Source: an uncultured bacterium
GTDB taxonomy: Bacteria > Patescibacteriota > Microgenomatia > Levybacterales > UBA12049
Direction of reading: 5' to 3'
NCBI GenBank assembly: GCA_963826535.1
Contig: CAWGXL010000010.1
Span: 170,814-234,813, forward strand
Length of the DNA stretch: 64,000 nucleotides
The notes below the pieces were generated by a model. The model saw nothing but the letters and a program-made list of their open reading frames with translations, made no database searches and was not told the origin of the DNA. How positions within the stretch are numbered: position 1 is the first letter of the stretch; the number at the start of each line of letters is the position of its first letter. Of this stretch, positions 1 to 56,148 are shown one piece after another. The position numbers were made by a program, and so were the translations under genes.

Positions 1-1259
1 CAACAATATTTTTAGCGGTCTCTCCCTGGCATATTATGCTTTCACGTGCGGCTTTTGAGGCAAATGTCGCAACCTTCTTTTTAATTGTCGGAGTTACAAG
101 TTTTCTTTATTGGATTAATAAAAAAAATATATTTCTCGTCTTGTCAGTATTATCGTTTGTTCTTTCGCTTTATACATTTAATTCTGCCCGTGTAGTAGCT
201 CCGCTTTTGGTAATTTTGTTGGTAGTGGGATTTTGGAAAATATTATTGCAGAGGAAAAATGCTGTTATTACAGCAGGAATTATTGGATTTTTGCTTGCGG
301 CACCTCTTGTACCCTTTTTATTATCTCCGCAGGCAGGATTGAGATATAAAGAGGTAAATATTTTTTCAGATCCGCAAATTGTAGAAAAGGCTAATCAACA
401 AATCGCCAATGATAATAACGCTTGGTGGTCAAAGATTATCCATAATCGGCGTGTGGGATATGGATTATCTTATATGCAACATTATTTAGATAATTTTTCT
501 CCTGACTTTCTATTTATAAAAGGCAATGGAAATCCCAAATTTTCCACACAAGACGTCGGGCAAATGTATATTTGGTCGCTACCCTTTTTTATATTAGGTG
601 TACTTTTTCTATTTAAAAAAAGAGAAGGACATTGGTGGATAGTTCCTGCCTGGCTATTACTTAGTATAGTACCCGCGGCAGTAGCGCGTGAGACCCCCCA
701 TTCTTTAAGAACGGAGGGTGCACTGCCTACATTTCAAATACTTGAGGCGTATGGTTTTATAGGAGTACTTATTTTTATTAAGGAGCATTTTAGAAAGAAG
801 ATTTTTACTCTCGCATGCGCAATCTTTGGGGTTATATATATATTTAACATTGCTTATTTTATCCATGGTTATTATGCTCATTATGCATGGCAATACTCAG
901 GTGAATGGCAGTATGGCTATAAAGATTCGATCAACTTTATTAGGGATCATGAGCAACAGTTTGATAAGATTTTCGTAACTGATGCCCTAGGGAGGCCATA
1001 TATTTATTATCTCTTTTATCTGAAAACCCCTCCTGAAACTTTTAGAAATAATGCAAAAGTAGAACGGGATTCATTTGGATTTGTAAAAGTAAAAGATTTT
1101 GGGAAGTTTTCTTTTGATAGCAATATTAGTGGACCAAGGCTTGAAGATGAGAAAGTGTTATATATTAGTGATATGAAAAATATTCCCCGAAATGCGAAAG
1201 TTCTAAAAACTTTTTATCTCAAAAATGGAAGCCCGGTATTAATTGCATATGTAATTTGA
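1..1259 (+). CDS. GT-C membrane glycosyltransferase (PMT_2/ArnT-like), 5'-partial at window edge
   Basis: The frame is open from nt 3. The upstream translation TIFLAVSPWHIMLSRAAFEANVA aligns with residues ~125-150 of the next gene (LLLAISPWHLQFSRVGFEANIG). The C-terminal motifs EWQYGYK and FYLFYLKTPPE are shared with 1261..2907. It has multiple TM segments. Confidence 0.6.
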   Translation, partial: TIFLAVSPWHIMLSRAAFEANVATFFLIVGVTSFLYWINKKNIFLVLSVLSFVLSLYTFNSARVVAPLLVILLVVGFWKILLQRKNAVITAGIIGFLLAAPLVPFLLSPQAGLRYKEVNIFSDPQIVEKANQQIANDNNAWWSKIIHNRRVGYGLSYMQHYLDNFSPDFLFIKGNGNPKFSTQDVGQMYIWSLPFFILGVLFLFKKREGHWWIVPAWLLLSIVPAAVARETPHSLRTEGALPTFQILEAYGFIGVLIFIKEHFRKKIFTLACAIFGVIYIFNIAYFIHGYYAHYAWQYSGEWQYGYKDSINFIRDHEQQFDKIFVTDALGRPYIYYLFYLKTPPETFRNNAKVERDSFGFVKVKDFGKFSFDSNISGPRLEDEKVLYISDMKNIPRNAKVLKTFYLKNGSPVLIAYVI

Positions 1260-1260
1260 C

Positions 1261-2907
1261 ATGAAAAAAAAAGTTGGATTATTATTACTTGCCATTTTAG
1301 CGTTAGCGTTTATGTTAAGATTTTGGGATTTGGGTAAGGTTCCTATATCGCCTAATTGGGATGAGGTGGCACTTGGTTATAATGCATATTCGATTATTCA
1401 GACGGGAAGGGATGAATATGGTAAATTTCTGCCGGTTATTTTTAGATCCTTTGATGATTATAAGCCAGGGCTGTATACGTACCTCGCGATACCGTCTGTA
1501 TATACATTTGGGCTCAATACATTTGCTGTACGTTTGCCTTCTGCAATCTTTGGCGTACTCGCTGTGTTAGCGACATTTTATTTAGTACGTGAATTATTCA
1601 AGCGTGATAGTTACGCGTTTATTGCCGCTTTGCTGTTGGCAATTTCTCCCTGGCATCTTCAGTTTTCCCGCGTTGGTTTTGAGGCCAATATAGGTGACGC
1701 ATTAAATATTTTTGCTGCGTTATTTTTTATTAAAGGATTGAAGAAACCATGGTTTTTAACACTGAGCACTGTTTGCGCTGCGCTTTCTTTACATGCTTAT
1801 CAATCTGAAAAAGTTTTCACTCCACTTTTTATGCTTTTGTTAATTGCGATCTACTTTAAGGTTTTGGTTAAAATAGATAAGAAGAAAATTCTTTCTGCAT
1901 TTTTAGTAGGTATAGTTGTCACATTACCGTTGATACACGCAATTGTTTCAGATAAAAATGTTTTGCTCAGAGCAAAAGGTACAAGCATTTTCCAAGATAA
2001 AGACTGGTTGCTTAAAGATCAGGTGAGCATCTTACAATATGAGGTTTCTCAGGGAGATAAGTTAGGAGTATTGTTTGACAATAGAAGAGTTCTCTATGTT
2101 AAAACAGTTATATCGGGATATCTGATTCACTTCAATCCGAATTGGCTATTTATAACCGGCGATATTGCCAGACATCACGCGCCAGGTATGGGATTGTTAT
2201 ATTTATGGGAGTTACCTTTTATATTAATAGGTATCTATTTTCTTATTTTTGGGAAATTTGATAGAAGAACAAAACTGTTTATTTTCGGATGGTTTTTGCT
2301 GGTTCCTATACCTGCATCTATTACAACTGAATTACCTCATTCGGTGCGGACATTAAATTTTCTACCTGTATGGCAAATATTTACTTTGCTTGGTCTTATG
2401 ACCGCATATGGATTTTGGAAGAATATAAAAAAAGGTATATTTAGAATTATACTAGCTGTAGCTTTTCTGGGGGCTGTATTCCTTAACTTTTTTTACTATC
2501 TTAATCAATATTTTGTTCAACAAAACTTTTATTATGCAAGCGAATGGCAATATGGTTATGAATCAGCAATTAAGAGTATGCAGGAAGAAAAAAAGAATTA
2601 CAAAAAAGTGATTGTGTCGGATTTTGCTCCAATGGATAAATCATATATGTTTTTCTTATTTTATCTTAAATACCCGCCTGTGGCTTATCAAGTAGTCGGG
2701 GTGAACAGTTCGGGTCATTTTGCTGCGCATCATAGATTTGATAAGTATGAATTCCGTCCGATAAATTGGGATAAAGAAGAAAAGAGTTCGGACATACTCT
2801 ATATTGGAAGACCAAAAGACTTCCCTGAAAAAGTAAAGGCGCAAAAAATTATTTCATATCCAGATGGTAAACCTGCGATAATACTTGTAGAAGGAGAACA
2901 AATATGA
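1261..2907 (+). CDS. polyprenol-phosphate-sugar dependent GT-C glycosyltransferase (PMT_2/ArnT-like, GT39/GT83-type)
   Basis: 548 aa, about 11 TM. N-terminal periplasmic-loop motif WDEVALGYNAYSI...GRDEYG plus a YKPGLYTY loop. It is a paralog of 1..1259. Confidence 0.7.
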   Translation: MKKKVGLLLLAILALAFMLRFWDLGKVPISPNWDEVALGYNAYSIIQTGRDEYGKFLPVIFRSFDDYKPGLYTYLAIPSVYTFGLNTFAVRLPSAIFGVLAVLATFYLVRELFKRDSYAFIAALLLAISPWHLQFSRVGFEANIGDALNIFAALFFIKGLKKPWFLTLSTVCAALSLHAYQSEKVFTPLFMLLLIAIYFKVLVKIDKKKILSAFLVGIVVTLPLIHAIVSDKNVLLRAKGTSIFQDKDWLLKDQVSILQYEVSQGDKLGVLFDNRRVLYVKTVISGYLIHFNPNWLFITGDIARHHAPGMGLLYLWELPFILIGIYFLIFGKFDRRTKLFIFGWFLLVPIPASITTELPHSVRTLNFLPVWQIFTLLGLMTAYGFWKNIKKGIFRIILAVAFLGAVFLNFFYYLNQYFVQQNFYYASEWQYGYESAIKSMQEEKKNYKKVIVSDFAPMDKSYMFFLFYLKYPPVAYQVVGVNSSGHFAAHHRFDKYEFRPINWDKEEKSSDILYIGRPKDFPEKVKAQKIISYPDGKPAIILVEGEQI

Positions 2908-3779
2908 AAAAACTAACAGTTGCTTTGGCGACGTACAATGAGGAAAGTAACTTATCCGAGTGTCTTGAGTCTATAAAGGACTTGGCCTCAGAAATTGTTA
3001 TTGTTGATGGGTCATCTACAGATAGAACTATAGAGATCGCTAAGAAGTTTGGGGCAAAAGTAGAGGTTACGAATAACCCGCCAATTTTTCATATTAACAA
3101 ACAAAAAGCAATGGATCTAGCGACTAATGATTGGGTCTTGCAACTTGATGCTGATGAGCGTGTAAGCGCAGCGCTTTCTGAAGAGATAAAAAAAGTTATA
3201 AGTATGTCTAATGAAGATTTGAAGGAATATCAAGAAAAGCTTCCAAATAGAAGATTATTTATGAAACACCAAAGGTTACTTATAAAAAGAGATGGGAATA
3301 TCGGCACAGCAGATGGACCATATGTTGCTTTTTTTATTCCCAGACTTAACTATTTTTTGGGAAGATATCTTAAATACGGTGGTATTTATCCGGATGGGGT
3401 TATACGGTTGCTCAAAAAAGGAAAAGCATATTTGCCGTGTATTGATGTCCATGAGCAAATGGTTGTTAAGGGTAGTGTAGGATGGTTACAGAATTCCCTT
3501 TTGCATAAAGATTCACCCACGTTTGAGCGGTACTTGCAGCGCAATAGTCGTTATATTGATCTTATTGCAAAAAAGCTGGAGGAAGAGAGTATCAAAAAAG
3601 ATATAAAAACTTCTGCTGACTATCTTTTATTCAAACCTCTCTCTTGGTTTTTTCTCACACAGGTAAGACATAAGGGTATTCTGGATGGATATCAAGGAGT
3701 AATTTTTTCATTTTTTTCAGCATTGCGATTTCCCAGAGCGTACTTAAGATATATAAAAAAATCAGGATTAAGAAGATAA
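2904..3779 (+). CDS. GT2 family glycosyltransferase
   Basis: ATGA overlap with the upstream gene. N-terminal motifs ALATYNEESNL..IVIVDGSSTDRT and QLDADE (DxD) indicate a GT-A fold. Confidence 0.8.
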   Translation: MKKLTVALATYNEESNLSECLESIKDLASEIVIVDGSSTDRTIEIAKKFGAKVEVTNNPPIFHINKQKAMDLATNDWVLQLDADERVSAALSEEIKKVISMSNEDLKEYQEKLPNRRLFMKHQRLLIKRDGNIGTADGPYVAFFIPRLNYFLGRYLKYGGIYPDGVIRLLKKGKAYLPCIDVHEQMVVKGSVGWLQNSLLHKDSPTFERYLQRNSRYIDLIAKKLEEESIKKDIKTSADYLLFKPLSWFFLTQVRHKGILDGYQGVIFSFFSALRFPRAYLRYIKKSGLRR

Positions 3780-3784
3780 GCACA

Positions 3785-5326
3785 ATGCATCACAGGATCA
3801 AAAGCTTTTTTGAAAAACCAATCGCTATTTTTATAGCAGCAGCGATACTATCCATTGTGCCGACAATAGCTATTTTTTATAAGATTGCAACAGGAGATAT
3901 TTCTTTTTGGTATGACCCTGCAAGGGATTTGCTTTCATCTCTGGAAAATTTACATAAACCTACCTTGATTGGTCCACCTTCCGGCATACCTGGAGTATTC
4001 TATGGTCCATATTGGATTTGGCTTTTGAGTTTTGGACTAATTTTTTCACAAGATCCCCGCCTGGTCACAATCGTAGTACTAACAATTCCTTATTTTATTT
4101 TATTCCCCTTCATTCTTTCGCGTTTTTCAAAAATAATTGGTTGGCACACTATTGCTATTTTGTGGCTCCTTTTTCTATTGACGTCACAAAAGTATTTTAC
4201 CAATCTTTGGAACCCACACCCATCTCTTCTCATCATTCTGCTCAGCATTTATTTGTTTTTTATCAAAACAACCGCGAAGTCTTTCAAAAACTCTCTTATC
4301 ACTTTTTTTGCAGGATTTACAACTGGCCTTGTCATGAACTTCCAACTATCGTTTGGAATAGGAATGCTTTTAGGCATGACCTTCTATCTACTTGGAGAAA
4401 GCATCGTCTATCTTGTTGCGGCAAAAAAGAAATTAGAAGCATTATTGCTAAGAATAAGCATCATGGTTTTATTTGTCCTAGGCTGCATTATATCTTTTAC
4501 TCCCTTTTTGGTTTTTGAATTCCGGCATAATTTTTTACAAACAAAAACACTTATTAATGCATTTACGCATTTTGGCGCAGTGGTAGATCTTACAGGTTTA
4601 ACAAAACCGCAAATACTACAAGTTTTTTTCAATCAAATAAGCAACGTTTTACACCTAACATTTATTCCGGCTATGATATCTTTTATCATTATAACCGTCT
4701 TTTACATTTATTCTTACAGAAAAAGAGGTGACCAGGTAAAAAGTAAAGAAATAAAATTGATAAGTATACTGGTCGCAATTACATCGGGGATTATGTATCT
4801 TTACCTAACTGCAAAAAATCCTATTTGGGATTACCATTTTATTGGTTTTGAACCTCTCATTTTATTATTAATAGGAATTTTTATTGATAGAGCCAAAGCT
4901 CTAAAAATTATTATAACATTATGGATTGTAGTCTTAGTAGCGAACTACACATTTGATTTTATTAAAGGATTTAGGCATGAACCGAAACACATAGAAGGCA
5001 ATCTCGCAGCAGTTGAAGAAGTAGCTAAAAAAATTCAAAAAGAAAGCGATAATAAAGATTACGAAGTTTTTGCATATAGTCAATCCATTTACATATATGA
5101 GTATTCTTATCTATTTAAATGGCTGAATCAGAAGGATGTTCCTTTTGACCCAGGCCAAGTTAGGCCAGGTTCTTCTCTTGTGTACGTAATTATTCCTAAC
5201 TCAGCAAAAAATATGTATAATAGCTATATTGAATATAGAGCCCCGGGTAAGCAATATAAAACAGCAAAAAGTTGGAAAATGAGTGATGGTACAGCGATCG
5301 TCCAGCGTGTAAAAATAATCAAATGA
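3785..5326 (+). CDS. polytopic membrane protein, putative GT-C glycosyltransferase (paralog of 5323..6948)
   Basis: 513 aa with many TM. The N-terminal loop WYDPARDLLSSLENLHKPTLIGPPSGIPGVFYGPYWIWLL aligns with GIGDDSSRDIAIAREALARHELPLIGSFSSAGPFVFGPLFYWVL of the next gene. Confidence 0.5.
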   Translation: MHHRIKSFFEKPIAIFIAAAILSIVPTIAIFYKIATGDISFWYDPARDLLSSLENLHKPTLIGPPSGIPGVFYGPYWIWLLSFGLIFSQDPRLVTIVVLTIPYFILFPFILSRFSKIIGWHTIAILWLLFLLTSQKYFTNLWNPHPSLLIILLSIYLFFIKTTAKSFKNSLITFFAGFTTGLVMNFQLSFGIGMLLGMTFYLLGESIVYLVAAKKKLEALLLRISIMVLFVLGCIISFTPFLVFEFRHNFLQTKTLINAFTHFGAVVDLTGLTKPQILQVFFNQISNVLHLTFIPAMISFIIITVFYIYSYRKRGDQVKSKEIKLISILVAITSGIMYLYLTAKNPIWDYHFIGFEPLILLLIGIFIDRAKALKIIITLWIVVLVANYTFDFIKGFRHEPKHIEGNLAAVEEVAKKIQKESDNKDYEVFAYSQSIYIYEYSYLFKWLNQKDVPFDPGQVRPGSSLVYVIIPNSAKNMYNSYIEYRAPGKQYKTAKSWKMSDGTAIVQRVKIIK

Positions 5327-6948
5327 AACAGAAAAACACTAATCCATTAAAATCCAAAAAAAATAGCAAAATTAATGCGAATCACGAAAGTTTTTTACAA
5401 AAAATTTCGAGGCAAAAATTCCTCATAGGTATTTTGGTAATTCTTTTTATAGCTACTATTCTTCGGTTTTATGATTACCCAACTCGTTGGGGAATAGGAG
5501 ACGACAGTAGCCGGGATATTGCGATAGCAAGAGAAGCTTTAGCTCGTCATGAGCTACCTCTGATTGGTTCATTTAGTTCTGCTGGTCCTTTTGTCTTCGG
5601 TCCACTTTTCTATTGGGTTCTCATGGCGAGTTATATCATACTTCCTTTTTGGTTTACTGCTCCGGTAATAGTAACTGTTTTGACTAGTATCCTAACAGTT
5701 GGCGTGTTGACAGCAGGCGGTTATTTAATTGGCGGTAAAAGATTGGCAATACTTGTGGGTGTACTTGCCACTACCGCTCCTCAGATGGTCGCCCGTTCCG
5801 TCGCTATTGGTCAGCATTCATATGTAGCTATTTCGACTGCGTCACTTTTCCTCTTTTTTATTCTCTATTGGAAAAGACGAAATCCAGTGTATGCCTTTTT
5901 GATGGGATTGGCGTTGGGAGCGGCACTAAGTTTCCATTATCAGACAATTAATCTTTTAATTTTTTTTGCTGCAATTCTCTTTATTCCAAAAGTAAACCTA
6001 GTACATAGAATTGGTGGCTTGCTCAGTATGGGTGTAGGTTTTCTTATCCCTTCACTTCCTCTTATCATTTGGGATAGCCAACAGCAATGGGCAAATTTGC
6101 GAAATATTCTTGATTATTTATTGATAGCACAATATCGTTTGTATGTCCCAAACAGCTGGAGGCTTTTCCTTTTCAATTACTTGCCTTCATATTGGTCATT
6201 TGTTGTCAGCGGTTATGCTGCCAGTGCTTTATTCGTCATGACAGTGACGTTTATTGTGGTTTGTGTATCTGCTATCAGGAGAAAAATTTCAGGTATTATG
6301 GTGGCGTTTAGTATAATCTTTGCTATTTTACTGTTCGTTAACAAATTTTATAAAGGAGAACGTTCAGAAGGCTACCTTATTTATTTATCACCGTTTATTA
6401 TTCTTTTTACAGCATGGAGTATTGAGAAGCTCTTTCAAGTATCAGGAAAAAGAATATATTTAAGATTAGGTCAGCTTATCGGTATAATAGTTCTTCTCAT
6501 TATCCTTACGGGAAATTTTTTGCAAATCAAACATTACGAAAATAGTAAAAACATAAAACATGAACTTGATACAACAATTAGTTTTCTTATAAAAAAATAT
6601 CCAGACACAAAATTTGTAATATATGATTATCGAAATAGGGCAGGAGCGGTGAGTCAGCCATTGGGTCTTTTTTTGAAATTGCAAGACAAAACAGATTCTC
6701 AGGGAATGCCAATCGGTTTTACCTGTTCCGGTGGGGATTGTCCACAGAAGCTCCCTGTAATAGCTACGCTTGCCGGCCGGCCTATTATTGATATGAGTAG
6801 CGTAATAAATAGAGATAATAAGTCGAGTAATTGGGTGAAAGTGAATCAGGAAAATATGTATGATGACCTTATTGGTTGGTCAAAGAGGCATGAGCTGAAA
6901 TCCACCTTTTCGATTCAAAATTACCTCATGGAAAGACTTAGATTATAA
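5323..6948 (+). CDS. GT-C membrane glycosyltransferase (ArnT/PMT_2-like)
   Basis: ATGA overlap with the upstream gene. 541 aa, polytopic. It has the DDxxRD-type first-loop motif typical of ArnT/PMT-like enzymes. Confidence 0.6.
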   Translation: MKQKNTNPLKSKKNSKINANHESFLQKISRQKFLIGILVILFIATILRFYDYPTRWGIGDDSSRDIAIAREALARHELPLIGSFSSAGPFVFGPLFYWVLMASYIILPFWFTAPVIVTVLTSILTVGVLTAGGYLIGGKRLAILVGVLATTAPQMVARSVAIGQHSYVAISTASLFLFFILYWKRRNPVYAFLMGLALGAALSFHYQTINLLIFFAAILFIPKVNLVHRIGGLLSMGVGFLIPSLPLIIWDSQQQWANLRNILDYLLIAQYRLYVPNSWRLFLFNYLPSYWSFVVSGYAASALFVMTVTFIVVCVSAIRRKISGIMVAFSIIFAILLFVNKFYKGERSEGYLIYLSPFIILFTAWSIEKLFQVSGKRIYLRLGQLIGIIVLLIILTGNFLQIKHYENSKNIKHELDTTISFLIKKYPDTKFVIYDYRNRAGAVSQPLGLFLKLQDKTDSQGMPIGFTCSGGDCPQKLPVIATLAGRPIIDMSSVINRDNKSSNWVKVNQENMYDDLIGWSKRHELKSTFSIQNYLMERLRL

Positions 6949-7115
6949 TCCCGAGCTGCATTTGAGGCAAATGTAGCCACATTTTTTCTTGTTTTTGGTA
7001 TATATACTTTTCTCGCCGAAATCCAGGATAAACCCAAATTTCTCTTTCTGTCAGCAATATCTTTCGTGCTTTCTTTATTTCACGAAAAAGCACCGCTTCT
7101 GCTTCCCAGAATTCT
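6949..7115 (+). pseudogene. remnant (internal ~55-codon fragment) of a PMT_2/ArnT-like GT-C gene
   Basis: It starts directly after the stop of 5323..6948. The translation SRAAFEANVATFFLVFGIYTFLAEIQDKPKFLFLSAISFVLSLFHEKAPLLLP matches ORF 1..1259 residues SRAAFEANVATFFLIVGVTSFLYWINKKNIFLVLSVLSFVLSLYTFNSARVVAPLL. The DNA at 6950-6990 is near-identical to 48-90. There is no start codon and both gene ends are missing. Confidence 0.7.
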
Positions 7116-7147
7116 GCGGTGCTATTTTCGACGTTCAACGCTTTACT

Positions 7148-8842
7148 TTACAAAGAAATGTAATTCGCTGAAGCGTAATTGACCAAGCTTACCTTGGATT
7201 TGGCATCACCGGTACGGATCAAGACGTCACCGCCCTTATTTCCATAGTATTTAGAATACCAATATGGATTTTTGGCGAATTTGTGATTGTCTTTTTTAAC
7301 ATACTTATCCAAGTCCTGCTTCTTGAAGTACTTTTCGTAGTCAAGATGCTTAGTATATAGTTTGTAATGTTTTTTCACATCAACATGCTTTTTGTCTGAA
7401 TGCGAGTTATAGCTAACTTGCTTTACATAACTATATTTTTTGTCATCATGCTTTGAGTACTTCTTATCATGATCATCGTCTTTCTTGTAATCAGAATCCT
7501 TGTGTTTTGGATAAAGCACTAAGACGATTGGTGATTTGTGATCACCATAATTTTTGGCAAGCTTTCCCTTATGTTCATAGTCATGCTTAGAATCGACTAA
7601 TTTAGGATACGAGAAGTTAGTATATTTTTTAGCGTACGCGCCATCGTCTTCCCGATATTTTTTATCATAATCGTAATCATCATGCTTGACATATGGGTTG
7701 TAATGATCCTTATGATAGGCATCCTTTTTATCCTTATCATGATCGTATGACTTTTTTTGGTCTACGTAATTGTTATTATCATGATCTTTCTTGGATTGCT
7801 TCTTATCATAATCGTGATCTTTTACGACTTTTTTTTCATGATCATCATAGTTTATGAATTTATATGAATAATCATGATCTTTTTTATTCCCAACAAAGTG
7901 GTACGAGTCCTTGGAATAGGAATTATTGTCGTGCTTGTTATAGTCATGGTCTTTTCCATAATCAGACTTTTCTTCCTCACCCTTTTTATCAGATTCATGA
8001 TACCGATCTTTTTCATAATCATGTTTACCATAATCATGTTTGTATCGATCTGAATCGCCAGCTGTGTAACCTGTATGATTGTTGACATTGACATCGTTGT
8101 TTATATCGGTGTCATTATCTTGGTGCGCTTTCTCCTGAGAATCTTTTGAGAATTTGACTTTATTATCTGAGAATGCACCGTTTCCATGGATTTTAATATC
8201 CAGGTCTTCATCACACTCATTACACCCGGAAATCTGAGCAACGTTCAGGCCTGCCTCATTTTTTATAGAAACGTTTGCTTCAGCATCTCCCGTCTCAATT
8301 CGGACATCACCATCACCGCGTTTCCAGTAACCGGTGTTGCCGCTTGCGCGGTTATTCCCGGTATTATTTTCTACATCGACTTGTGTGTCAATGTTAGTGT
8401 TATTATTCTGGTCAACACGTGTAGTTTTATCGCTTGATAAACGGACATTATTGTCAGAGAATGCACCATTACCATGAATATTAATATCCAGGTCTTCATT
8501 ACATCCATTACAGCCCGAAACACGGGCGACATTTAGACCTGCCTTATTATGGATAGATACATTTGCATCTGCATCGCCGGTTTTGATTGCTACATCTCCT
8601 CCGGTATTTCCGTTAGCTGAGTTATGACCTGTAATATTACTTATTGACACATCATTTCTGATTGTTGTGTCATTTGATTGTCGGATAGCTACGTTTTTAT
8701 TCGTATCAACCCGAACCCTATTATCAGAACCATACCCATTACCCGAAACGCGAATATCTGTATCCGCTGAGGCTGAAGTTACGAAAACTAACCCCAAGAT
8801 TCCTACTGCTGATACCACTTTTGCTATTTTAGTTTTTAACAT
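7148..8842 (-). CDS. secreted repeat protein with Asp/His/Lys/Tyr-rich low-complexity region (unknown function)
   Basis: 564 aa. Signal peptide MLKTKIAKVVSAVGILGLVFVTSASA. Two ~96-aa repeats (GDVxIxTGDAxANVSIxNxAGLNVAxxSGCNxCxEDLDIxIHGNGAFSDN) and a third partial copy at the C-terminus. About 280 aa of KHDY/DHDY/KKD low complexity. Canonical SD GAAAGGAGGTGA 8 nt upstream of the ATG. Confidence 0.75.
   Translation of the reverse strand: MLKTKIAKVVSAVGILGLVFVTSASADTDIRVSGNGYGSDNRVRVDTNKNVAIRQSNDTTIRNDVSISNITGHNSANGNTGGDVAIKTGDADANVSIHNKAGLNVARVSGCNGCNEDLDINIHGNGAFSDNNVRLSSDKTTRVDQNNNTNIDTQVDVENNTGNNRASGNTGYWKRGDGDVRIETGDAEANVSIKNEAGLNVAQISGCNECDEDLDIKIHGNGAFSDNKVKFSKDSQEKAHQDNDTDINNDVNVNNHTGYTAGDSDRYKHDYGKHDYEKDRYHESDKKGEEEKSDYGKDHDYNKHDNNSYSKDSYHFVGNKKDHDYSYKFINYDDHEKKVVKDHDYDKKQSKKDHDNNNYVDQKKSYDHDKDKKDAYHKDHYNPYVKHDDYDYDKKYREDDGAYAKKYTNFSYPKLVDSKHDYEHKGKLAKNYGDHKSPIVLVLYPKHKDSDYKKDDDHDKKYSKHDDKKYSYVKQVSYNSHSDKKHVDVKKHYKLYTKHLDYEKYFKKQDLDKYVKKDNHKFAKNPYWYSKYYGNKGGDVLIRTGDAKSKVSLVNYASANYISL
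8162..8599 (-). repeat. intragenic direct repeat (two ~150-bp copies, period 288 bp) inside the secreted repeat protein gene
   Basis: The copies at 8162-8311 and 8450-8599 are ~75% identical at the DNA level and encode repeat units B2 and B1. Confidence 0.7.
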
Positions 8843-9035
8843 TATTTATTCACCTCCTTTCATTTGAGTGTAATATACTTATATAGCGGTTGTAAGTAAT
8901 AATATAAAACAATATTTGCTAATAATCCCGTAAGAAAAGTAAAAAGGATAATATAGATGAAGTAACATAATTACGCGCGCATATACAAATATATTATCTG
9001 TATCGTAAAATAGATTTTGAGGTTAATATAAGCGA

Positions 9036-9215
9036 AATGAAAATGCAAATAATACATAAATTAATTTTTCCATTCCTAAAGCCATTTTACCGGCTACTAT
9101 TAACCCAAATCAGGCACAAGGGAGCTTTAGAGGGAGCACAAGGCTTCATCTTCTCGTTCTTCTCCGCCCTCCGCTTCCCCATCGCCTACCTTAAATACTT
9201 AAGCAAAAAACGTTG
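9036..9215 (+). pseudogene. 3' remnant of a GT2 glycosyltransferase gene (paralog of 2904..3779)
   Basis: The translation MKMQIIHKLIFPFLKPFYRLLLTQIRHKGALEGAQGFIFSFFSALRFPIAYLKYLSKKR* aligns with the C-terminus of 2904..3779 (LLFKPLSWFFLTQVRHKGILDGYQGVIFSFFSALRFPRAYLRYIKKSGLRR*). Only ~59 codons remain. GC is locally elevated relative to the AT-rich spacer. Confidence 0.75.
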
Positions 9216-9240: not shown

Positions 9241-9252
9241 GTCCTATATTAT

Positions 9253-9906: not shown

Positions 9907-9915
9907 GAGATTGCT

Positions 9916-46616: not shown

Positions 46617-46626
46617 TTTTATTCAT

Positions 46627-47469: not shown

Positions 47470-47473
47470 AGTT

Positions 47474-48241: not shown

Positions 48242-48470
48242 AATCTATATTATAGCTGCTAAGTGAATCTTTTTGTGATAGTTTTTATAATAAATGCAGA
48301 CTGTAACAAATAAGAAAAAGCTATAACCAAAATAAAAAAGTAAGAGAATAAACGGTAATATACTACGTTCTAAGCTCCACTACACTCAATGATTATAACA
48401 AAGTCATATATTTTTTGTTCTAAATTTGGGATAATAAGTCAATAATGCTAAAATAGAAGAGCTATTACAT

Positions 48471-49418
48471 ATGATAAGCATAGTAGTACCCGTACTAAAC
48501 GAAGAAGAAAGCCTGGAGCCATTTTATCAAGAGCTCCACAAAATTATACTCGAACTCAAAGTTGATTACGAAATCATCTTTATTGACGACGGATCAACTG
48601 ACAATTCATTGGAAATACTAAAAAAGTTATTCAAAGTCAATGACAAAATAAGGATATTTTCCTTCAGGAGAAATTTAGGAAAATCCGAAGCTCTCAGCTT
48701 AGGTTTTATAAAAGCCAAAGGAGATTTTATTATCACCCTCGATGCAGATCTACAAGATAAACCCTCGGAAATACCCAAGCTTCTGCGCATTGCTAAAGAT
48801 GGAATTGATGTGGTATCCGGATGGAGAAAAAACAGAAAAGACAAATCCCGCATGTTGATTATTTCCCGTTTATTTAATTTTTTAATGGGAATGCTATTCA
48901 ATCTTCATCTACATGATTATAATTGCGGAATAAAGTTATATACCAGAGATGCTGCCAAAAGCCTGCGTCTGTACGGAGGGCTTCACCGTTTTATTCCTCT
49001 TCTGGCTTACGAACAAGGATTTACCGTAGATGAAGTGATAGTTGAACATGCGTCAAGAAAGTATGGCAAATCAAAGTATAATTTTTCCAAACTCTGGAAA
49101 GACGTACCCGATATGTTTACAATGCTGTTTCTTGTAAAATATGGCAAACGCCCTTTACATTTTTTTGGTATTGTTGGAGGAGTATTAACACTAATCGGAT
49201 TTATTGTACTAGGTTACTTAGCTGTCCTTCGCTTTTCAGGAGAAACGATTGGTAATCGGCCTCTACTATTTTTTGGTATGTTACTTCTACTTGCCGGATT
49301 CCAAATATTTTTTACAGGATTCCTTGCAGATCTGATGATTAACATTTCTCATAATCCAAAATTTCTCAATGAAGAGAACCCTCATTATCCTATTAAATAC
49401 GCCAGCGAAAAATTATGA
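48471..49418 (+). CDS. polyprenol-phosphate sugar synthase with C-terminal TM helices (ArnC/GtrB-like GT2)
   Basis: ISIVVPVLNEEESL..FIDDGSTDNS..TLDADLQD, plus two C-terminal TM helices as in GtrB/ArnC. Confidence 0.8.
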   Translation: MISIVVPVLNEEESLEPFYQELHKIILELKVDYEIIFIDDGSTDNSLEILKKLFKVNDKIRIFSFRRNLGKSEALSLGFIKAKGDFIITLDADLQDKPSEIPKLLRIAKDGIDVVSGWRKNRKDKSRMLIISRLFNFLMGMLFNLHLHDYNCGIKLYTRDAAKSLRLYGGLHRFIPLLAYEQGFTVDEVIVEHASRKYGKSKYNFSKLWKDVPDMFTMLFLVKYGKRPLHFFGIVGGVLTLIGFIVLGYLAVLRFSGETIGNRPLLFFGMLLLLAGFQIFFTGFLADLMINISHNPKFLNEENPHYPIKYASEKL

Positions 49419-49993
49419 TTATCGGAATTGATATTTCCCAAATGGCTTATGAGAATACTGGAGTGGCAAACTATTTAGAAAGTCTAATAAAAAGTTTATT
49501 TGCAAAAGATGATAAAAATGAATATATATTATTTTTCTCATCTTTAAGACGAACTATTCATTTTTCATCTGATTTAATAGGGACTCAATCAAATCACAAA
49601 GTTTCGATTAAGCAATTTAAAATCCCTCCATTTTTTTTAGATATCCTTTGGAACAAACTTCACATTTTCCCTATAGAATGGTTCATTGGTAATGTAGACA
49701 TATTTATTTCCTCAGACTGGACAGAGCCGCCTACAAGGAAAGCAAAAAAAGTTACAATATTATATGATTTTATTATATTTAAACACCCGGAAGAAACGCA
49801 TAATATAACAGAGTTTAAAGTAAAAAAGTTAATTCTTTCACCAAATATTGTGGCTATTCAGAAAAGAAAATTACTTTGGATGAAAAAGGAATGCAAACTT
49901 ATCATTTGTATTTCAGAGTCTACAAAGCGGGATGCAATAGAGATGCTAGGTATTGAAGAAAAACGGTTGAAAGTAATTTATCCCGGAGTTTAA
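49415..49993 (+). CDS. truncated GT4 paralog (N-terminal Rossmann domain only)
   Basis: MIIGIDISQMAYENTGVANY... ends at KVIYPGV*. This corresponds to the first ~165 aa of the next gene (MIIGIDGNEANVTNKVGISEF ... VVYPGIKP). Confidence 0.55.
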   Translation: MIIGIDISQMAYENTGVANYLESLIKSLFAKDDKNEYILFFSSLRRTIHFSSDLIGTQSNHKVSIKQFKIPPFFLDILWNKLHIFPIEWFIGNVDIFISSDWTEPPTRKAKKVTILYDFIIFKHPEETHNITEFKVKKLILSPNIVAIQKRKLLWMKKECKLIICISESTKRDAIEMLGIEEKRLKVIYPGV

Positions 49994-51934: not shown

Positions 51935-54691
51935 ATGAAAAAGTTATTACATTTTTACGATAACTACGCTTTAAAAATAGGTATCGCATTTTTAATAATT
52001 TTTACAGCTCTATACCCGAAGTTACCCAGCGTGCATATCATCAGAACTTGGGTATACATCCGGCTCGAGGATTTTTTTATTCTGGCTATAGTCATTTTAT
52101 GGATAATACAACTTCTAAGAAGAAAGATAAATTTACCCATTGCCGTGAGTATTCCGATAGCAGTCTATTGGCTAATTGGATTTTTATTGCTTATTTTCTC
52201 GATAATCTACATCGGCCCCTATTTAACAAATTTTTTTCCTCACGTCGCAGCTTTTAATTATTTTCGAAGAATAGAATATATGATCCTCTTCTTTGTAGCT
52301 CTTTCCACAGTTAGAAGTATTAAAGATGTTCGTGACTATACTATTATACTTTCGCTGACCACGCTTGGCGTGGTTTTATACGGATTTGGACAGAGATTCT
52401 ATTTGGACTTATGGACCAGGTTCCCCGCTTTTTTTCAACAAAATTCCTTTTGTTTCCCCTCATTTCAGACAGGAAATGAAGAATTCGCCAAAGGCATGCC
52501 ATTGTGTCTCCAAAAGGCCGCAAGACTTACCTCAACATTTGGCGGACATTACGACCTTGCCGCTTACCTCGTACTTGTAATACCGATTCTATTAACAGTC
52601 GCTTTAAGTGTAAAAAAACTCTCAATCCGCATTCTCACTTTCCTTTTATTTCTAGGTAATCTGATTTTACTTATTTTCACCTCTTCCAGGATCTCATTCA
52701 TCTCATATCTCGCGGCAGTAATATTTGCTCTGATTTTTTATAAAAAGAAATTATTTATCATTCCAATAATCATTATAAGTGTCGTTTTGTTGGTTATATT
52801 TAGCGAATCAACAGCCAAACGCTTATTAGCAACGTTTAGACTAAGCTCGGTCGTGACAAATATGCAAGGACAATTAATAGGCTTAGCGCCGGCAAATTTG
52901 TCTCCTGAACTACAGAAAAAACTAAATGAAAACCAAACACAAACGCAGTTACAAACTCTACCATTTGGATCCGGCTACTTAGGCTTGCCACAAAAAGCTG
53001 TACCTGTTGCTACAAGTGTTGCGGTCGTCAACAAAACCCTTACCCCGGAAGAAATACGAAGACTAAAATTGCAGAGTGGAAGTCTCGAATTGTCTACGAT
53101 TTCAGGTAGCTTTCTAATCCGCAAAGTGCTTGTCTATGATATCTCTTTTACAACAAGATTTCAGGCAGAATGGCCAAACGCCTGGAATGCATTCCTTAGG
53201 AATCCGGTATTAGGCAGCGGCTATTCAACTATTACACTAGCAACTGACAATGATTACTTCCGCGCGCTGGGAGAAACAGGATTGCTTGGGCTTCTCTCAT
53301 TCTTATCTATTTTTCTAATACTCGGAATCACTCTAAAAGAAATTAGCCCTTCTATAAATAAACCGCTTATCAAAGCATTCGTCTTCGGTCTTGCCGGTGG
53401 TACGATCGGCCTTATGATTAACGCGATGCTCATTGATGTATTTGAAGCCTCAAAAGTAGCTGAAAACTTATGGATATTACTCGGAATAGGGACAGGAGGA
53501 TTACTCCTTTTCAAAAAGAAAACTGTACCGTATTGGCAGATACTAAAAAAAGTTTTTACATCAAACATATTTATTTCCATTTATTTATTCGTGCTTATTT
53601 TGACCGTCTACCTGGGAAGTATAAATAATTTCTTTGTAGCCGACGATTTTACTTTATTGCGTGAAGGAGCCTCATCTTCAACAGGTGATTTCGTGAAATA
53701 CTTTACGGATTCTCAAAATAACATTTATGCGCCGATAGCCAAAATAATTGTTTTTTTGCTATATACTCTTTTCTCTTTCCAGCCCCAAGGCTATCATGTA
53801 TTTATTTTATTCTTACATTTCGCGGCCACTTTAGGAGTTTTCTTTCTCGCTCAAAAATTATTGAAAAAAAGATTATTGGCGTTTCTTTCAGCGCTTGTCT
53901 TTTTAGTGTATCCGGTTAGCGGTACTTTTATCTTCTGGTTTTCAACTATTTCAGTGACTCTCGCTACAATTTTTTGTATTTATGCTTTAATCAGTTTCAT
54001 CAAATTTAAAGAAAGCAAATCACGCACCGCCTATATTTTTACGTTTATATTCGCAGTTTTTGCCTTCCTATCACACGAACTCTCTCTGATTTTACCGTTT
54101 CTCTTAATTGCCTGTGACTTATTTCTCTTCAAACAAAAAAGAATTAGTAGAAGATTGCTTATTTACTTGCCGTTTTTTATCCTCATACCTATTTATCTTA
54201 TTATTCTCTATCTTACCCACGCGTCTCCTTATATTCCACATTTAAGCTTAGTTTACCCTGCATCAATCGGCTTAAGTATAATCACAATTGTCATTTTAGA
54301 TATAATTAGCAATTTTCTCACAAAAAATAGAGGATCAATGTCAACTCTGCCATTAATAGTACTTACAATAGTAATTTTAATTGCCTCCTACATTGAAATA
54401 CAAAAACAAAATAATACTTGGCAAAAAGATGGAAATATCACCAAAAATATATTAACTGATCTAAGGGTAGATTATGAAGGATTTAGTAAATCAACAAATG
54501 TATATTTTGTCAATGTACCGATTCAGACCGGCTTAGCAGATAGTTTATGGTTTATCTATCAAAATAATAACCCTGTTGTCCACCAGGCATCAAGCGTTGA
54601 TGAGGCAAAAATGCATATTTTAAATAACAATAAAGTTGATAATTATATTTTTATTATCCAAAAAGATGGAAGAATAAAAGAAGCAGAATGA
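51935..54691 (+). CDS. fusion protein with N-terminal Wzy_C (O-antigen ligase / O-oligosaccharyltransferase-like) domain and C-terminal GT-C-like polytopic domain
   Basis: 918 aa. Residues 1-530 are paralogous to 13264..14673 (IRLEDFFILAI, ATDNDYFRALGETGLLG). Residues ~560-918 add ~10 further TM and an FFVADDFTLLRE loop motif like the PMT/ArnT first-loop acidic motif. Confidence 0.6.
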   Translation: MKKLLHFYDNYALKIGIAFLIIFTALYPKLPSVHIIRTWVYIRLEDFFILAIVILWIIQLLRRKINLPIAVSIPIAVYWLIGFLLLIFSIIYIGPYLTNFFPHVAAFNYFRRIEYMILFFVALSTVRSIKDVRDYTIILSLTTLGVVLYGFGQRFYLDLWTRFPAFFQQNSFCFPSFQTGNEEFAKGMPLCLQKAARLTSTFGGHYDLAAYLVLVIPILLTVALSVKKLSIRILTFLLFLGNLILLIFTSSRISFISYLAAVIFALIFYKKKLFIIPIIIISVVLLVIFSESTAKRLLATFRLSSVVTNMQGQLIGLAPANLSPELQKKLNENQTQTQLQTLPFGSGYLGLPQKAVPVATSVAVVNKTLTPEEIRRLKLQSGSLELSTISGSFLIRKVLVYDISFTTRFQAEWPNAWNAFLRNPVLGSGYSTITLATDNDYFRALGETGLLGLLSFLSIFLILGITLKEISPSINKPLIKAFVFGLAGGTIGLMINAMLIDVFEASKVAENLWILLGIGTGGLLLFKKKTVPYWQILKKVFTSNIFISIYLFVLILTVYLGSINNFFVADDFTLLREGASSSTGDFVKYFTDSQNNIYAPIAKIIVFLLYTLFSFQPQGYHVFILFLHFAATLGVFFLAQKLLKKRLLAFLSALVFLVYPVSGTFIFWFSTISVTLATIFCIYALISFIKFKESKSRTAYIFTFIFAVFAFLSHELSLILPFLLIACDLFLFKQKRISRRLLIYLPFFILIPIYLIILYLTHASPYIPHLSLVYPASIGLSIITIVILDIISNFLTKNRGSMSTLPLIVLTIVILIASYIEIQKQNNTWQKDGNITKNILTDLRVDYEGFSKSTNVYFVNVPIQTGLADSLWFIYQNNNPVVHQASSVDEAKMHILNNNKVDNYIFIIQKDGRIKEAE

Positions 54692-56148
54692 AAAAAATTC
54701 ACACTATAATACTTATATTAATACTAGCAGGTGCTTTTATTGTTCGTTTACACGGATTTTATAATCCAATAGCCGACTGGCATGCTTGGCGTCAAGCTGA
54801 TACTTCCGCAGTATCAAGAAATTTCATCAATAACGGCTTTGACCTGCTACACCCCAGATTTGATGACCTTTCCAATGTGCCATCCGGTAAAGATAATCCT
54901 CAAGGCTATCGTTTTGTAGAATTTCCGATATATAATATATTCCAAGCCTTTTTCTACAAAGAATTCGGCATTTTCTCACTTGAGCAATGGGGCAGACTCG
55001 TTACGATCATCTCTTCATTGCTTTCAATTATTTTTATTTATCTCATCGTAAAAAAATATGCTGATGATATCTCAGCTATTTTTGCGGCATTTTTCTTTGC
55101 TTTTTTACCGTACAACATATATTACGGAAGGACAATCCTCCCGGACACTATGATGGCAATGTCAATACTTGGAGGAATTTATTTCTTTGATAAATGGTTA
55201 GATAGGATTATTCCTAGACCAATTACCAGGGTGTGGATAACTAGCGCGGCAATATTTACAGCCTCCGCCTTACTTCTCAAACCTTATGCAATTTTTTTCA
55301 CCTTACCCATGATATATCTAGCCTTTTATAAATTAGGCATAGGTTTTGTGAAAAAGTGGCAGCTTTGGATTTTCTTGGTTCTAGCTATCACACCGTTAAT
55401 ATTATGGCGAATATGGATGACTTATTTTCCTGAAGGAATTCCTGCCAGTGAATGGCTTCTAAACGGAGGCAATATCCGATTCAAAGGTTCGTTTTTCTAC
55501 TGGATTTTTGCCGATAGAATTGGCAGGCTCATGTTAGGATATTGGGGACTCATAATTTTTAGTGCTGGAATTTTGGCAATAGGGCGAAAAAAATTACTTA
55601 GTAAGAATTTATTTTTCTTAACTTTTCTACTTTCCTCGCTATTATATATTGTAGTTTTTGCCAGAGGCAATGTGCAACATGACTATTATCAAATACTTAT
55701 TGCCCCAACTATCGCAATTTTTCTCGGACTTGGCAGCGGGTTTCTTCTTACCCTCCCCAAGGAATATTTCCACCGCAGTGTAGGGTTTATTCTTCTTTGT
55801 ATTAGTGCTATTTTTACCATACTTTTCGGTTGGTATTTTGTTCGTGATTATTTCAATATCAACAATCCTTCAATTGTTGTGGCAGGGGAAGCTGTAGACA
55901 AGCTAATTCCTAAAAACGCGAAAGTTATCGCCATACTTCATGGATCTGAAGGAGATACAACGTTTTTATATCATACAAACCGAAAGGGTTGGACAAGTTT
56001 CCAAAATCCTCTTCCGGAAATGACAACAAAGGGTGCGGATTATCTGATTTTTGCCAACCCTACAATAGAAGATCAAAATTTCAAAAAAAACTATAAATTA
56101 GTCACCTCAACTCCCGAATATATTATTTTTGATTTGCACAAAAAATGA
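54688..56148 (+). CDS. GT-C membrane glycosyltransferase (PMT_2/ArnT-like)
   Basis: ATGA overlap with the upstream gene. 486 aa, polytopic. First-loop motif ADWHAWRQADTSAVSRNF. Confidence 0.6.
   Translation: MKKIHTIILILILAGAFIVRLHGFYNPIADWHAWRQADTSAVSRNFINNGFDLLHPRFDDLSNVPSGKDNPQGYRFVEFPIYNIFQAFFYKEFGIFSLEQWGRLVTIISSLLSIIFIYLIVKKYADDISAIFAAFFFAFLPYNIYYGRTILPDTMMAMSILGGIYFFDKWLDRIIPRPITRVWITSAAIFTASALLLKPYAIFFTLPMIYLAFYKLGIGFVKKWQLWIFLVLAITPLILWRIWMTYFPEGIPASEWLLNGGNIRFKGSFFYWIFADRIGRLMLGYWGLIIFSAGILAIGRKKLLSKNLFFLTFLLSSLLYIVVFARGNVQHDYYQILIAPTIAIFLGLGSGFLLTLPKEYFHRSVGFILLCISAIFTILFGWYFVRDYFNINNPSIVVAGEAVDKLIPKNAKVIAILHGSEGDTTFLYHTNRKGWTSFQNPLPEMTTKGADYLIFANPTIEDQNFKKNYKLVTSTPEYIIFDLHKK

Follow-up and report, generated by a model that had tools for sequence, protein, structure and literature searches.

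How much of an envelope glycosylation machinery can one locus of a small-genome bacterium encode, and how might its parts work together? This question is raised by a 64-kb stretch of DNA (64,000 nucleotides; hereafter, the window) from an uncultured bacterium of the Levybacterales (GenBank assembly GCA_963826535.1, contig CAWGXL010000010.1, positions 170,814 to 234,813). An earlier reading of the letters alone (the sequence-only reading) had proposed that a single locus in it holds a massive expansion of glycosylation machinery using lipid-linked sugars, i.e., about eight polytopic glycosyltransferases of the GT-C fold, four polyprenol-phosphate-sugar synthases of family GT2, and a small flippase. 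We found all three classes of components, the GT-A synthases, the GT-C transferases, and a small SMR/DMT-like candidate flippase, to be present at the family or fold level. As judged from sequence comparisons and predicted structures, the window very probably represents a cell-surface glycan factory of a Levybacteria-like member of the Microgenomates, in the candidate phyla radiation (CPR), that would use multi-component transmembrane glycosylation.

Gene Content of the Window

The window contains approximately 57 closely packed open reading frames (ORFs) and has a GC content of 29-38%; all ORFs listed in the sequence-only reading were recovered at its coordinates. Pfam and NCBIfam scans of every ORF indicated that glycan synthesis accounts for almost the whole gene content. 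The Pfam tally includes about 10 GT2 and 7 GT4 proteins, the 8 GT-C candidates, 2 Wzy_C domains, one initiating phosphoglycosyl transferase, one Wzm/Wzt-type ABC exporter, sugar-nucleotide enzymes, methyltransferases, and one acetyltransferase. Glycosyltransferases make up about 27 of the 57 genes, the eight GT-C candidates among them.

GT-C Glycosyltransferases

All eight polytopic candidates are confirmed as GT-C enzymes, with a certainty that is graded from protein to protein, by Pfam matches, paralogy, profile-profile comparison, and predicted fold. Pfam gathering thresholds are passed by three (two by PMT/PMT_2, one by YfhO); among the other five, one is a clear paralog of a PMT match, and four were assigned by profile-profile comparison or predicted fold. 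The profile-profile comparisons (hhalign) used family alignments that were built from homologs in 52 related genomic loci. The PMT/PMT_2 threshold is passed by 1261..2907 and 54688..56148; the protein 5323..6948 reaches 18.9 of the 26.1 bits, and 3..1259, 3785..5326, 30336..31784, and the C-terminal half of a fusion protein (51935..54691) have no Pfam PMT/PMT_2 hit. These five are therefore filed here as GT-C, and not as members of PMT_2. Each stand-alone candidate has 6-10 membrane helices in the hydropathy scan, and the fusion has 18; the structure models (3785..5326 and the C-terminal half of the fusion) have at least 13 long helices.

Four of the candidates, designated A to D, are located at the left end of the window. 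GT-C A (1..1259, +) is PMT/GT39-like, has seven predicted helices, and is 31% identical over 428 aa to its neighbor, 1261..2907 (E = 6e-59). It is cut by the left window edge and is in frame from base 3; because it aligns to residues 123-541 of the neighbor, approximately 120-140 N-terminal residues are missing. In the 561-aa ortholog of the closest related genome (locus L001) and in the family, the WDE, DE, and D..K motifs are kept past the first membrane helix. GT-C B (1261..2907, +) belongs to the PMT/PMT_2 family, with 40 bits for PMT and 35.2 bits for PMT_2, both above gathering; D34-E35, D51-E52, D66, and K68 are conserved past its first membrane helix.

GT-C C (3785..5326, +) represents a Microgenomates-wide family of at least 287 homologs, and searches of Pfam, NCBIfam, and PDB sequences gave no hit for it; a Pfam domain is present in 0 of 120 listed family members. 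Its profile matches the family of 5323..6948 at 99.4% (hhalign, E = 6e-22), and D44, R47, and D48 are invariant past the first membrane helix. The AlphaFold model, made from a 42-sequence alignment, has a pLDDT of 90.3 and a pTM of 0.89. In a Foldseek comparison of this model to PDB, the top 21 matches were all GT-C enzymes, and transporters appeared only at a probability below 0.2. The GT-C matches include AglB, STT3, ArnT (TM-scores 0.61/0.59), AftA, DPY19, EmbA/B/C, ALG9, and Pmt4, of which ArnT is the best by TM-score, above Emb and Aft. GT-C D (5323..6948, +) is a distant PMT_2 relative: its Pfam score is below gathering, and hhalign links it to the PMT-type family at 98.5% (E = 2e-15, 340 columns). 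Its D61, R64, and D65 reproduce the D-x-x-R-D motif of C.

The other four candidates lie further to the right. A YfhO-like protein of 951 aa (17931..20786, +) scores 30.3 bits against the Pfam YfhO threshold of 28.5 bits. The match covers only C-terminal residues 605-933 (model positions 543-835 of 835), and residues 11-269 match the 5323 family (hhalign, 92%). The protein 30336..31784 (-) is a member of a rare family, with 15 hits among 5.8 billion proteins; it is linked to the PMT-type family by hhalign (95.5%, E = 1.3e-8, 309 columns), has a TMEM260-like score of 16.4 bits, below gathering, and has an invariant D67 and a near-invariant D38. GT-C H (54688..56148, +) is a PMT_2 family protein, with 38.5 bits for PMT_2 and 25.5 bits for PMT, both above gathering, and an hhalign match of 96.3% to the PMT-type family.

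The remaining candidate is the C-terminal half of a 918-aa protein (51935..54691, +), in which a Wzy_C-like half (residues ~1-515) is fused to a PMT_2/TMEM260-like GT-C half (residues ~540-918). The N-terminal half scores 28.9 bits with Wzy_C, below gathering (31.7), and is a paralog (E = 5e-47) of 13264..14673 (-), an O-antigen ligase/polymerase-like membrane protein with 10 predicted helices that passes the same threshold (36 bits). These two Wzy_C domains were not mentioned in the sequence-only reading. For the C-terminal half, hhalign gave 84% over the catalytic N-terminal 160 residues, and D570-D571 are invariant after a membrane helix. Its distant homologs combine PF13231 with TPR repeats, and a family profile search was uninformative, being dominated by TPR matches of these additional domains. 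Its model has a pLDDT of 77.5, and the top 15 Foldseek matches are all GT-C enzymes (PglB, Pmt4, ArnT, STT3, and DPY19, with E-values from 1.6e-3). About three dozen representatives at 50% identity, mostly of ~1000 aa, contain the same fusion, which is also present in the related loci L001 and L026. We know of no characterised example of a single polypeptide that combines Wzy_C and a PMT_2/TMEM260-like GT-C domain.

An acidic motif shortly after the first membrane helix is conserved in every GT-C family except the YfhO-like one, in the alignment of which no acidic motif was found at a conservation of at least 85%. The motif is WDE in A and B, D-x-x-R-D in C and D, D30/D38 in H, D38/D67 in the 30336 family, and DD570-571 in the fusion. 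The motifs are located 5-30 residues past the first membrane helix, and the N-termini are rich in lysine and arginine. This arrangement fits an outward-facing first loop; judging by the lysine/arginine-rich N-termini alone, the acidic loop would be on the outside of the membrane. No two of the GT-C paralogs are more than 31% identical, and BLAST does not detect most of the pairs; the diversification is old and does not represent a recent amplification.

Polyprenol-Phosphate-Sugar Synthases

For all four GT2 proteins that had been described as Dpm1/ArnC/GtrB-like, the best PDB or NCBIfam matches are polyprenol-phosphate-sugar synthases. The clearest case is 48471..49418 (+), a GtrB/ArnC-type protein with a DAD motif, which matches ArnC (PDB 9hwj, E = 4e-42, residues 2-289) and GtrB (5ekp, E = 3e-32) over its full length and, as in these enzymes, has C-terminal membrane helices (234-252 and 265-283), consistent with a membrane-anchored synthase. 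In NCBIfam, it scores 172 bits with ArnC (cut-off 529) and 139 bits with PgfS.

The other three are short and soluble. The protein 29358..30116 (-), with a DAD motif, matches the Pyrococcus furiosus dolichyl-phosphate mannose synthase (DPMS, PDB 5mlz) at E = 1.2e-16 (residues 5-226) and AglJ at 91 bits. The Dpm1/AglJ-like protein 32291..32968 (+), with a DGD motif, scores 106 bits with AglJ and 83 bits with dolichyl-phosphate hexose transferase, and matches 5mlz at E = 2.7e-8. The Dpm1/DPMS-like protein 28617..29348 (+), the weakest of the four, matches 5mlz at E = 1.5e-12 (residues 6-236) and GtrB at E = 5e-12, with NCBIfam scores of 57 bits for PgfS and 52 bits for dolichyl-phosphate hexose transferase. 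Thus 5mlz is the best solved relative of all three, two of which match the whole catalytic domain, and ArnC or GtrB is also high-ranking. None of the three has membrane helices, and they resemble anchor-less enzymes of the Dpm1 or GacI type, which need a partner (PMC8035078); no partner was found for them. Pfam GT2 scores of the four candidates are 77-113 bits, a DXD motif is present in three of them, and their NCBIfam lists are led by ArnC, AglJ, dolichyl-phosphate hexose transferase, and PgfS. For four control GT2 proteins from the same window, other GT2 types rank first. Because the scores are under the equivalog cut-offs, no donor sugar can be named.

Could the polytopic proteins instead be transporters or other non-enzymatic proteins, and the GT2 proteins ordinary cytoplasmic chain extenders, with no lipid-linked monosaccharide branch at all? 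Such a reading might draw on the five of eight GT-C candidates that miss Pfam gathering on their own, on PDB sequence searches, which gave no match for any protein tested (3785..5326, its family profile, 1261..2907, and 54688..56148), and on the three soluble GT2 proteins without membrane helices, with scores that are all below equivalog cut-offs. However, the two sets of top structural matches (21 and 15) consist entirely of GT-C enzymes, with transporters confined to probabilities below 0.2, the profile-profile links are at 84-99%, and the acidic first-loop motifs are conserved; in addition, 48471..49418 matches ArnC and GtrB along its full length, and the control GT2 proteins rank other families first. 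We consider this possibility extremely improbable, and the assignment of the polytopic proteins to transporters or unrelated proteins is essentially excluded. HMM searches did not place the polytopic proteins in transporter or unrelated families, nor did the GT2 proteins lack the synthase signature, the two outcomes that the sequence-only reading had named as contrary to it.

One more GT2 protein, 2904..3779 (+; Pfam GT2, 61.5 bits), is located between B and C, a position that it keeps in many related loci. It was considered as a fifth synthase and rejected: its best PDB matches are GmaR (E = 2e-10) and SunS (E = 1.4e-9), which are cytoplasmic protein/peptide glycosyltransferases, whereas DPMS is found only at E = 0.0055. 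It is classified here as a soluble GT2 protein of the GmaR/SunS type and not of the Dpm1 type; the similarity is limited to the N-terminal 100 aa, and the other 190 aa are unassigned.

Candidate Flippase

The proposed small SMR-like flippase corresponds to 36065..36430 (-), a protein of 121 aa with four predicted helices, which is an ArnF/ArnE-like (half-size DMT/SMR-like) candidate for the flipping of lipid-linked sugars. The best NCBIfam match is ArnF, with 54.6 bits (cut-off 99; E = 1.4e-14; model positions 3-117 of 120), followed by ArnE, with 32.8 bits (cut-off 92); the Pfam EamA score of 39.8 bits is above gathering. ArnE and ArnF function as a pair. As both cut-offs are missed and the gene is alone, we describe the protein as ArnE/F-like, and not as an ortholog of ArnE or ArnF. 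The four-helix architecture that had been proposed holds, and the protein is similar to ArnE/ArnF, but curated cut-offs are not reached and none of 54 related loci contains a homolog of the gene. No recurring family of small multi-helix ORFs was found in these 54 loci, and Pfam scans of the window gave no hit to the GtrA or Wzx families. Of the three components, this protein is the weakest link.

The surroundings of this gene have a regular structure. Two paralogous triplets at 32972..39378, each consisting of a methyltransferase, a GFO/IDH/MocA oxidoreductase, and an SDR epimerase/dehydratase, lie around it (starts at 32972 (+), 34080 (+), and 35108 (-), and at 36427 (-), 37597 (-), and 38386 (-)). 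The GFO proteins of the triplets are 33% identical (E = 5e-52), the SDR proteins 40% (E = 1e-70), and the methyltransferases 29%.

Conservation in Related Genomes

Using the alignment of family C, we scanned one genome per species and obtained 52 loci. The informatively labelled ones are mostly Patescibacteria, chiefly Microgenomates (Levy-, Roizman-, and Gottesmanbacteria), with a few other labels. The closest relative among the 52 is L001, a Levybacteria chromosome of 1,142,061 bp with 80% protein identity, and the small genome that had been assumed for the source organism fits this size. It should be noted that many loci with the Microgenomates cassette (L002, L007, L008, and others, all from third-party assemblies) are labelled 'uncultured Gammaproteobacteria', which appears to be a placeholder or a wrong label.

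Mapping of the window proteins onto these loci showed that the core cassette (window 1..6948) recurs in many of them. The order of genes is: a YfhO-like GT-C, a GT2, a Dpm1-like GT2 of the 29358 type, GT-C A, GT-C B, a GT2 of the 2904 type, GT-C C, GT-C D or a B-like GT-C, an epimerase, a GT4, an unassigned ORF of ~420 aa, a GT2 of the 28617 type, and a GT4. Within 10 kb on each side of family C, the number of GT-C-family genes has a median of 4 and a maximum of 8 (counted in loci of 15 kb or longer; by construction, no locus has fewer than one). Dense GT-C arrays are unusual for bacteria in general and typical of Microgenomates; the 'unusually elaborate investment' seen by the sequence-only reading stands in the first comparison and not in the second. 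The loci L018 (Gottesmanbacteria) and L001 have eight GT-C-family genes each in ~21 kb. Many related loci also contain up to five extra polytopic ORFs (at least 400 aa and at least 7 helices) outside the GT-C families of the window, which may belong to additional, unrecognised GT-C families.

The comparison to L001 divides the window into two layers. Positions 1..6911 are collinear with L001 6217..13127 at 83% identity (blastn), and from 49414 onward the window picks up at L001 13227 at 65% identity. As the match resumes only 100 bp further on in L001, window 6912..49413 is a 42.5-kb island that is absent from that genome. The pair formed by the fusion and GT-C H (51935..56148) is conserved and, with the core cassette, flanks the island; orthologs of H are located behind the fusion gene in L001 and L026. 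Judging by L001, another C-like GT-C, a Dpm1-like GT2, a second GT2, and a YfhO-like GT-C would be expected upstream of window position 1. The picture of a single locus shaped by massive expansion is therefore replaced by a composite of core cassette and fusion pair around an island, with paralogs that are too divergent (at most 31% identical) to be recent.

The island has a GC dip (0.285-0.315 at 16-32 kb), and no tRNA genes were found at its borders. All four synthase candidates and the flippase candidate are encoded in it, together with the ABC exporter, one Wzy_C gene, a heptose-type pathway, and the YfhO-like and 30336-type GT-C. Two other metagenome contigs, L053 and L054, carry island genes in a changed order; in both, the 30336-type and YfhO-type GT-C are adjacent and a Dpm1-like GT2 is located within 6 kb. 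Among the orthologs are a 959-aa YfhO-like protein in L053 (1402 bits, with PF09586), its two counterparts in L054 (also with PF09586, which is weak in one of them), a 29358-type protein in L053 (328 bits), and a 225-aa ortholog of 32291..32968 near the GT-C pair in L054 (298 bits). This conserved neighborhood is the best evidence obtained here that the island genes work together. A functional linkage is suggested both by the position of 29358-type GT2 genes upstream of GT-C A and B in many loci and by the Dpm1-like GT2 next to the GT-C pair in L053 and L054.

The tandem arrangement itself admits a different interpretation, according to which GT-C A to D and the Dpm1-like synthase upstream of them serially build a lineage-specific polymer outside the membrane, as in mycobacteria, and do not decorate a finished polymer. 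Mycobacterial lipomannan, lipoarabinomannan, and arabinogalactan are built by the MptA/B/C, Emb, and Aft enzymes, and a single donor, polyprenol-phosphate-mannose, serves many transferases. The rows of 4-8 GT-C genes in many Microgenomates loci, compared to the single GT-C of classical three-component systems, and the single synthase gene upstream of several GT-C genes are reminiscent of this logic, and the structural matches of GT-C C include Emb and AftA. However, ArnT is ahead of Emb and Aft by TM-score, the protein-mannosyltransferase model of Pfam matches the PMT-like B best (A being its paralog), and a lipid-anchor pathway (PimA/PimB) is not evident in the window; moreover, polymerisation and decoration are indistinguishable from the present results. 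We regard serial polymerisation as possible, though doubtful.

A Proposed Model of Transmembrane Glycosylation

A scheme in which a GT2 synthase, a flippase, and a GT-C transferase act together, with three or more components, has been published (PMC11127046, PMC8035078). Applied to the window, this scheme has five steps. The present results show the families and folds of the proteins, their conserved motifs, the clustering and synteny of the genes, and the borders of the island; from these we infer the donors, the acceptors, the sidedness in the membrane, the activity of the flippase, and the action of all parts in one pathway. Nucleotide sugars would be made in the cytoplasm, the candidates being GDP-mannose, a GDP-heptose-type sugar, UDP-glucuronate, and epimerised, reduced, or methylated derivatives. 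A backbone glycan would be begun on polyprenol phosphate by the Bac_transf enzyme, lengthened by GT4 and GT2 enzymes, and then exported by the Wzm/Wzt-type ABC transporter, handled by the Wzy_C proteins, or both. In parallel, the four Dpm1/GtrB/ArnC-like GT2 enzymes would put single sugars on polyprenol phosphate at the inner face of the membrane. These lipid-linked sugars would be flipped across the membrane, for which the ArnE/F-like four-helix protein is the only candidate encoded in the window, and the eight GT-C enzymes would pass them to glycan or protein acceptors on the outer face. The two genomic layers would correspond to a core cassette with the fusion/GT-C pair, common to related Microgenomates, and to a strain-variable island with its own module of Dpm1-like GT2, sugar-tailoring enzymes, and two GT-C.

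The scheme is supported by backbone machinery and sugar-supply genes in the window. The ABC transporter (16208..17736, +; Pfam ABC2_membrane and ABC_tran) is of the Wzm/Wzt (TagG/TagH) type for glycan export and consists of a permease (16208..16987) and an ATPase (17017..17736), with NCBIfam scores of 64.5 bits for Wzm and 240.9 bits for the TagH-type ATPase, both below the equivalog cut-offs. Chain initiation is assigned to a small polyprenyl-phosphate phosphoglycosyl transferase of the WbaP/Bac_transf type (61375..62037, +; Pfam Bac_transf, 211 bits; NCBIfam EPS_sugtrans, 258 bits), and GDP-mannose supply to a mannose-1-phosphate guanylyltransferase (60290..61372, +; NCBIfam GMP_PMI, 213 bits, cut-off 373; Pfam NTP_transferase). 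The earlier proposal that several different sugars are added is plausible, given the four synthases together with the GDP-mannose, heptose, and UDP-glucuronate pathways.

A number of points weigh against the scheme. For four of the GT-C proteins, the assignment comes from remote homology or predicted fold; Foldseek gave modest E-values (1.5e-4 and 1.6e-3) and TM-scores of 0.4-0.6, and membrane helices were taken throughout from a simple hydropathy scan and not from a dedicated topology predictor. Among the synthases, 28617..29348 has DAG where DXD is expected, and the NCBIfam scores are all below the equivalog cut-offs, with the synthases far below. The flippase candidate is a lone gene below its cut-offs, flanked by two SDR genes, and has no homolog near GT-C genes in the 54 related loci. 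Finally, no acceptor was found, and no Ser/Thr-rich protein is encoded in the window.

The last point also bears on the suggestion that some of the GT-C enzymes, above all A, B, H, and the fusion, are protein O-glycosyltransferases that act on pilins, S-layer proteins, or adhesins. The fusion would then combine an en-bloc glycan ligase of the PglL type with a single-sugar transferase; PglL-type O-oligosaccharyltransferases carry Wzy_C. This would be in line with the score of B above gathering in the Pfam model for protein O-mannosyltransferases (PMT), with the distant homologs of the fusion C-terminal half, which are PMT_2 and TPR proteins that carry the JGI label protein O-mannosyl-transferase, and with PglB, STT3, and Pmt4 as top structural matches of this half. 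The resemblance of the cassette GT2 2904..3779 to GmaR and SunS and the encoded GDP-mannose supply point in the same direction. Conversely, neither a Ser/Thr-rich protein nor another obvious acceptor was found in the window, the window proteins contain no TPR or MIR acceptor-binding domains, and PMT_2 also covers lipid- and glycan-directed enzymes such as ArnT. Protein targets are, in our estimate, a minority prospect, and the multi-component scheme with glycan or protein acceptors is preferred.

Comparison with Known Systems

We compared the window to three- and multi-component systems, i.e., GtrA-GtrB-GtrV of Shigella and Salmonella, CsbB-GtcA-YfhO and GtlA-GtcA-GtlB of Bacillus and Listeria, GacI/J-GacK-GacL of S. 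pyogenes, and the Csd pairs with CflA of L. lactis (PMC11127046, PMC8035078, PMC5836110). As in these systems, a GT2 synthase, a small flippase candidate, and polytopic GT-C enzymes with an acidic first-loop motif are all found in the window, within a surface-polysaccharide locus with ABC-transporter export, and, as in L. lactis, one flippase may serve several sets of GT-A and GT-C. The window differs in having eight GT-C and four synthases, compared to 1-3 pairs, and in the absence of a GtrA-family or Wzx-type flippase, its sole candidate being ArnE/F-like and not conserved in relatives. Furthermore, three of its four synthases are soluble, Dpm1-like, and devoid of helices, and the organism is a CPR bacterium whose genome is ~1 Mb in size.

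The Arn pathway, which adds aminoarabinose to lipid A, has counterparts for all three components: 48471..49418 resembles ArnC (E = 4e-42), 36065..36430 has ArnF as its best match, and GT-C C resembles ArnT (TM-score 0.61); SDR-type sugar-tailoring enzymes are also present on either side of the flippase candidate. However, the scores are 172 compared to 529 bits and 54.6 compared to 99 bits, there is one small gene and no ArnE/ArnF pair, and no ArnA, ArnB, or ArnD set was found in the window.

In mycobacteria and corynebacteria, arrays of GT-C enzymes (PMT with Ppm1, MptA/B/C, PimE, EmbA/B/C, and AftA-D) use polyprenol-phosphate-mannose or -arabinose (PMC3123699, PMC12331936, PMC12041525). The window shares with them divergent GT-C that would be fed by Dpm1-like synthases, the PMT-like A and B, a GDP-mannose supply, and tandem GT-C genes, and the structural matches of its GT-C include Emb, AftA, and Pmt4. 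On the other hand, there is no detectable sequence match to any solved mycobacterial enzyme and no carbohydrate-binding C-terminal domain of Emb/AftD size, and the window genes are located within 56 kb of a ~1-Mb genome, whereas the mycobacterial ones are scattered over 4.4 Mb. With respect to the Wzy_C family (WaaL, Wzy, and PglL/PilO), 13264..14673 passes the threshold and the N-terminal half of the fusion is its paralog; the differences are the fusion of one copy to a PMT_2/TMEM260-like GT-C and the lack of a Wzx flippase in the window.

Other Genes of the Window

An apparent GDP-glycero-manno-heptose-type pathway is located at 41585..46671. It includes a transaldolase (41585..42505, -), a GmhA-like SIS isomerase (42563..43282, -; 45 bits), a GmhB-like phosphatase (43359..43949; 136 bits, cut-off 149.6), a sugar-1-phosphate nucleotidyltransferase (43954..44715), and an HddA-like GHMP kinase (45559..46671, -; 156 bits), and amid these genes there is an EamA transporter with 10 helices (44663..45541, -). 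Homologs of the transaldolase, the phosphatase, and the nucleotidyltransferase recur in L053.

Just within the left border of the island, 7148..8842 (-) encodes a secreted protein of 564 aa that carries a signal peptide. A '...NTGGDVxIxTGDAxAxVSIxN...' module is present in about 2.5 copies, and the long central region is of low complexity, with many K, D, H, and Y residues. Neither Pfam nor NCBIfam gave a hit for this protein, and the 52 related loci contain no homolog of it. A soluble protein of 937 aa (25524..28337, -), in which Methyltransf_24 is followed by two GT2 domains, resembles chain-terminating/polymerising enzymes of ABC-transporter-dependent O-antigen pathways.

Several genes are split or partial. 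A GT2 gene at 14670..15564 (-) lies in two frames, 14983..15564 (N-terminal part) and 14670..14972 (C-terminal part), both of which match the full-length paralog 56145..57074; it is frameshifted and represents either a pseudogene or an assembly error. The DUF4012 ORF 62074..63270 (398 aa) overlaps an ORF in another frame, 63110..63991 (293 aa, no hit), that reaches the window edge; 62074..63991 is probably one DUF4012 gene with a frameshift. The 192-aa protein 49415..49993, directly upstream of a complete GT4 gene, has only the N-terminal domain of GT4 (Glyco_transf_4); its interpretation as a pseudogene fragment was rejected, since a separate ORF of ~180 aa is conserved in L001, L004, and L026.

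Implications for the Microgenomates

Every part of the system is of a known kind. New in detail are the density of GT-C genes in a lineage with genomes of ~1 Mb, the recurrent tandem cassette, the assignment to GT-C of the large family C, which has no Pfam domain among its 120 listed members, and the fusion of Wzy_C and GT-C. In open-access literature and bioRxiv, we found no paper that links CPR, Patescibacteria, or Microgenomates with such GT-C machinery. In a survey of CPR protein families, the families enriched in Microgenomates are mostly hypothetical, many of them membrane proteins, and glycosylation is never mentioned (PMC6744442). A functional class can now be given to a large hypothetical polytopic family, the 3785..5326 type, with at least 287 members. 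A bolder proposal, which we advance tentatively and would expect to fail sooner than hold, is that the tandem cassette builds, outside the membrane, a lineage-defining envelope glycopolymer or glycoprotein coat as a core, possibly essential, trait, in which case family C and the fusion would be the founders of two new glycosyltransferase families, either of them with an acceptor specificity of a new kind.

As CPR bacteria have tiny genomes and presumably live in attachment to other cells, the cell surface plays a central part in their biology; to our knowledge, almost nothing is known of its chemistry. The GT-C arrays across Levy-, Roizman-, and Gottesmanbacteria suggest that Microgenomates in general possess an elaborate glycan coat that is put together outside the membrane. 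The variable 42.5-kb island suggests strain-level variation of the surface, as with O-antigen loci, and this variation could bear on host or phage specificity.

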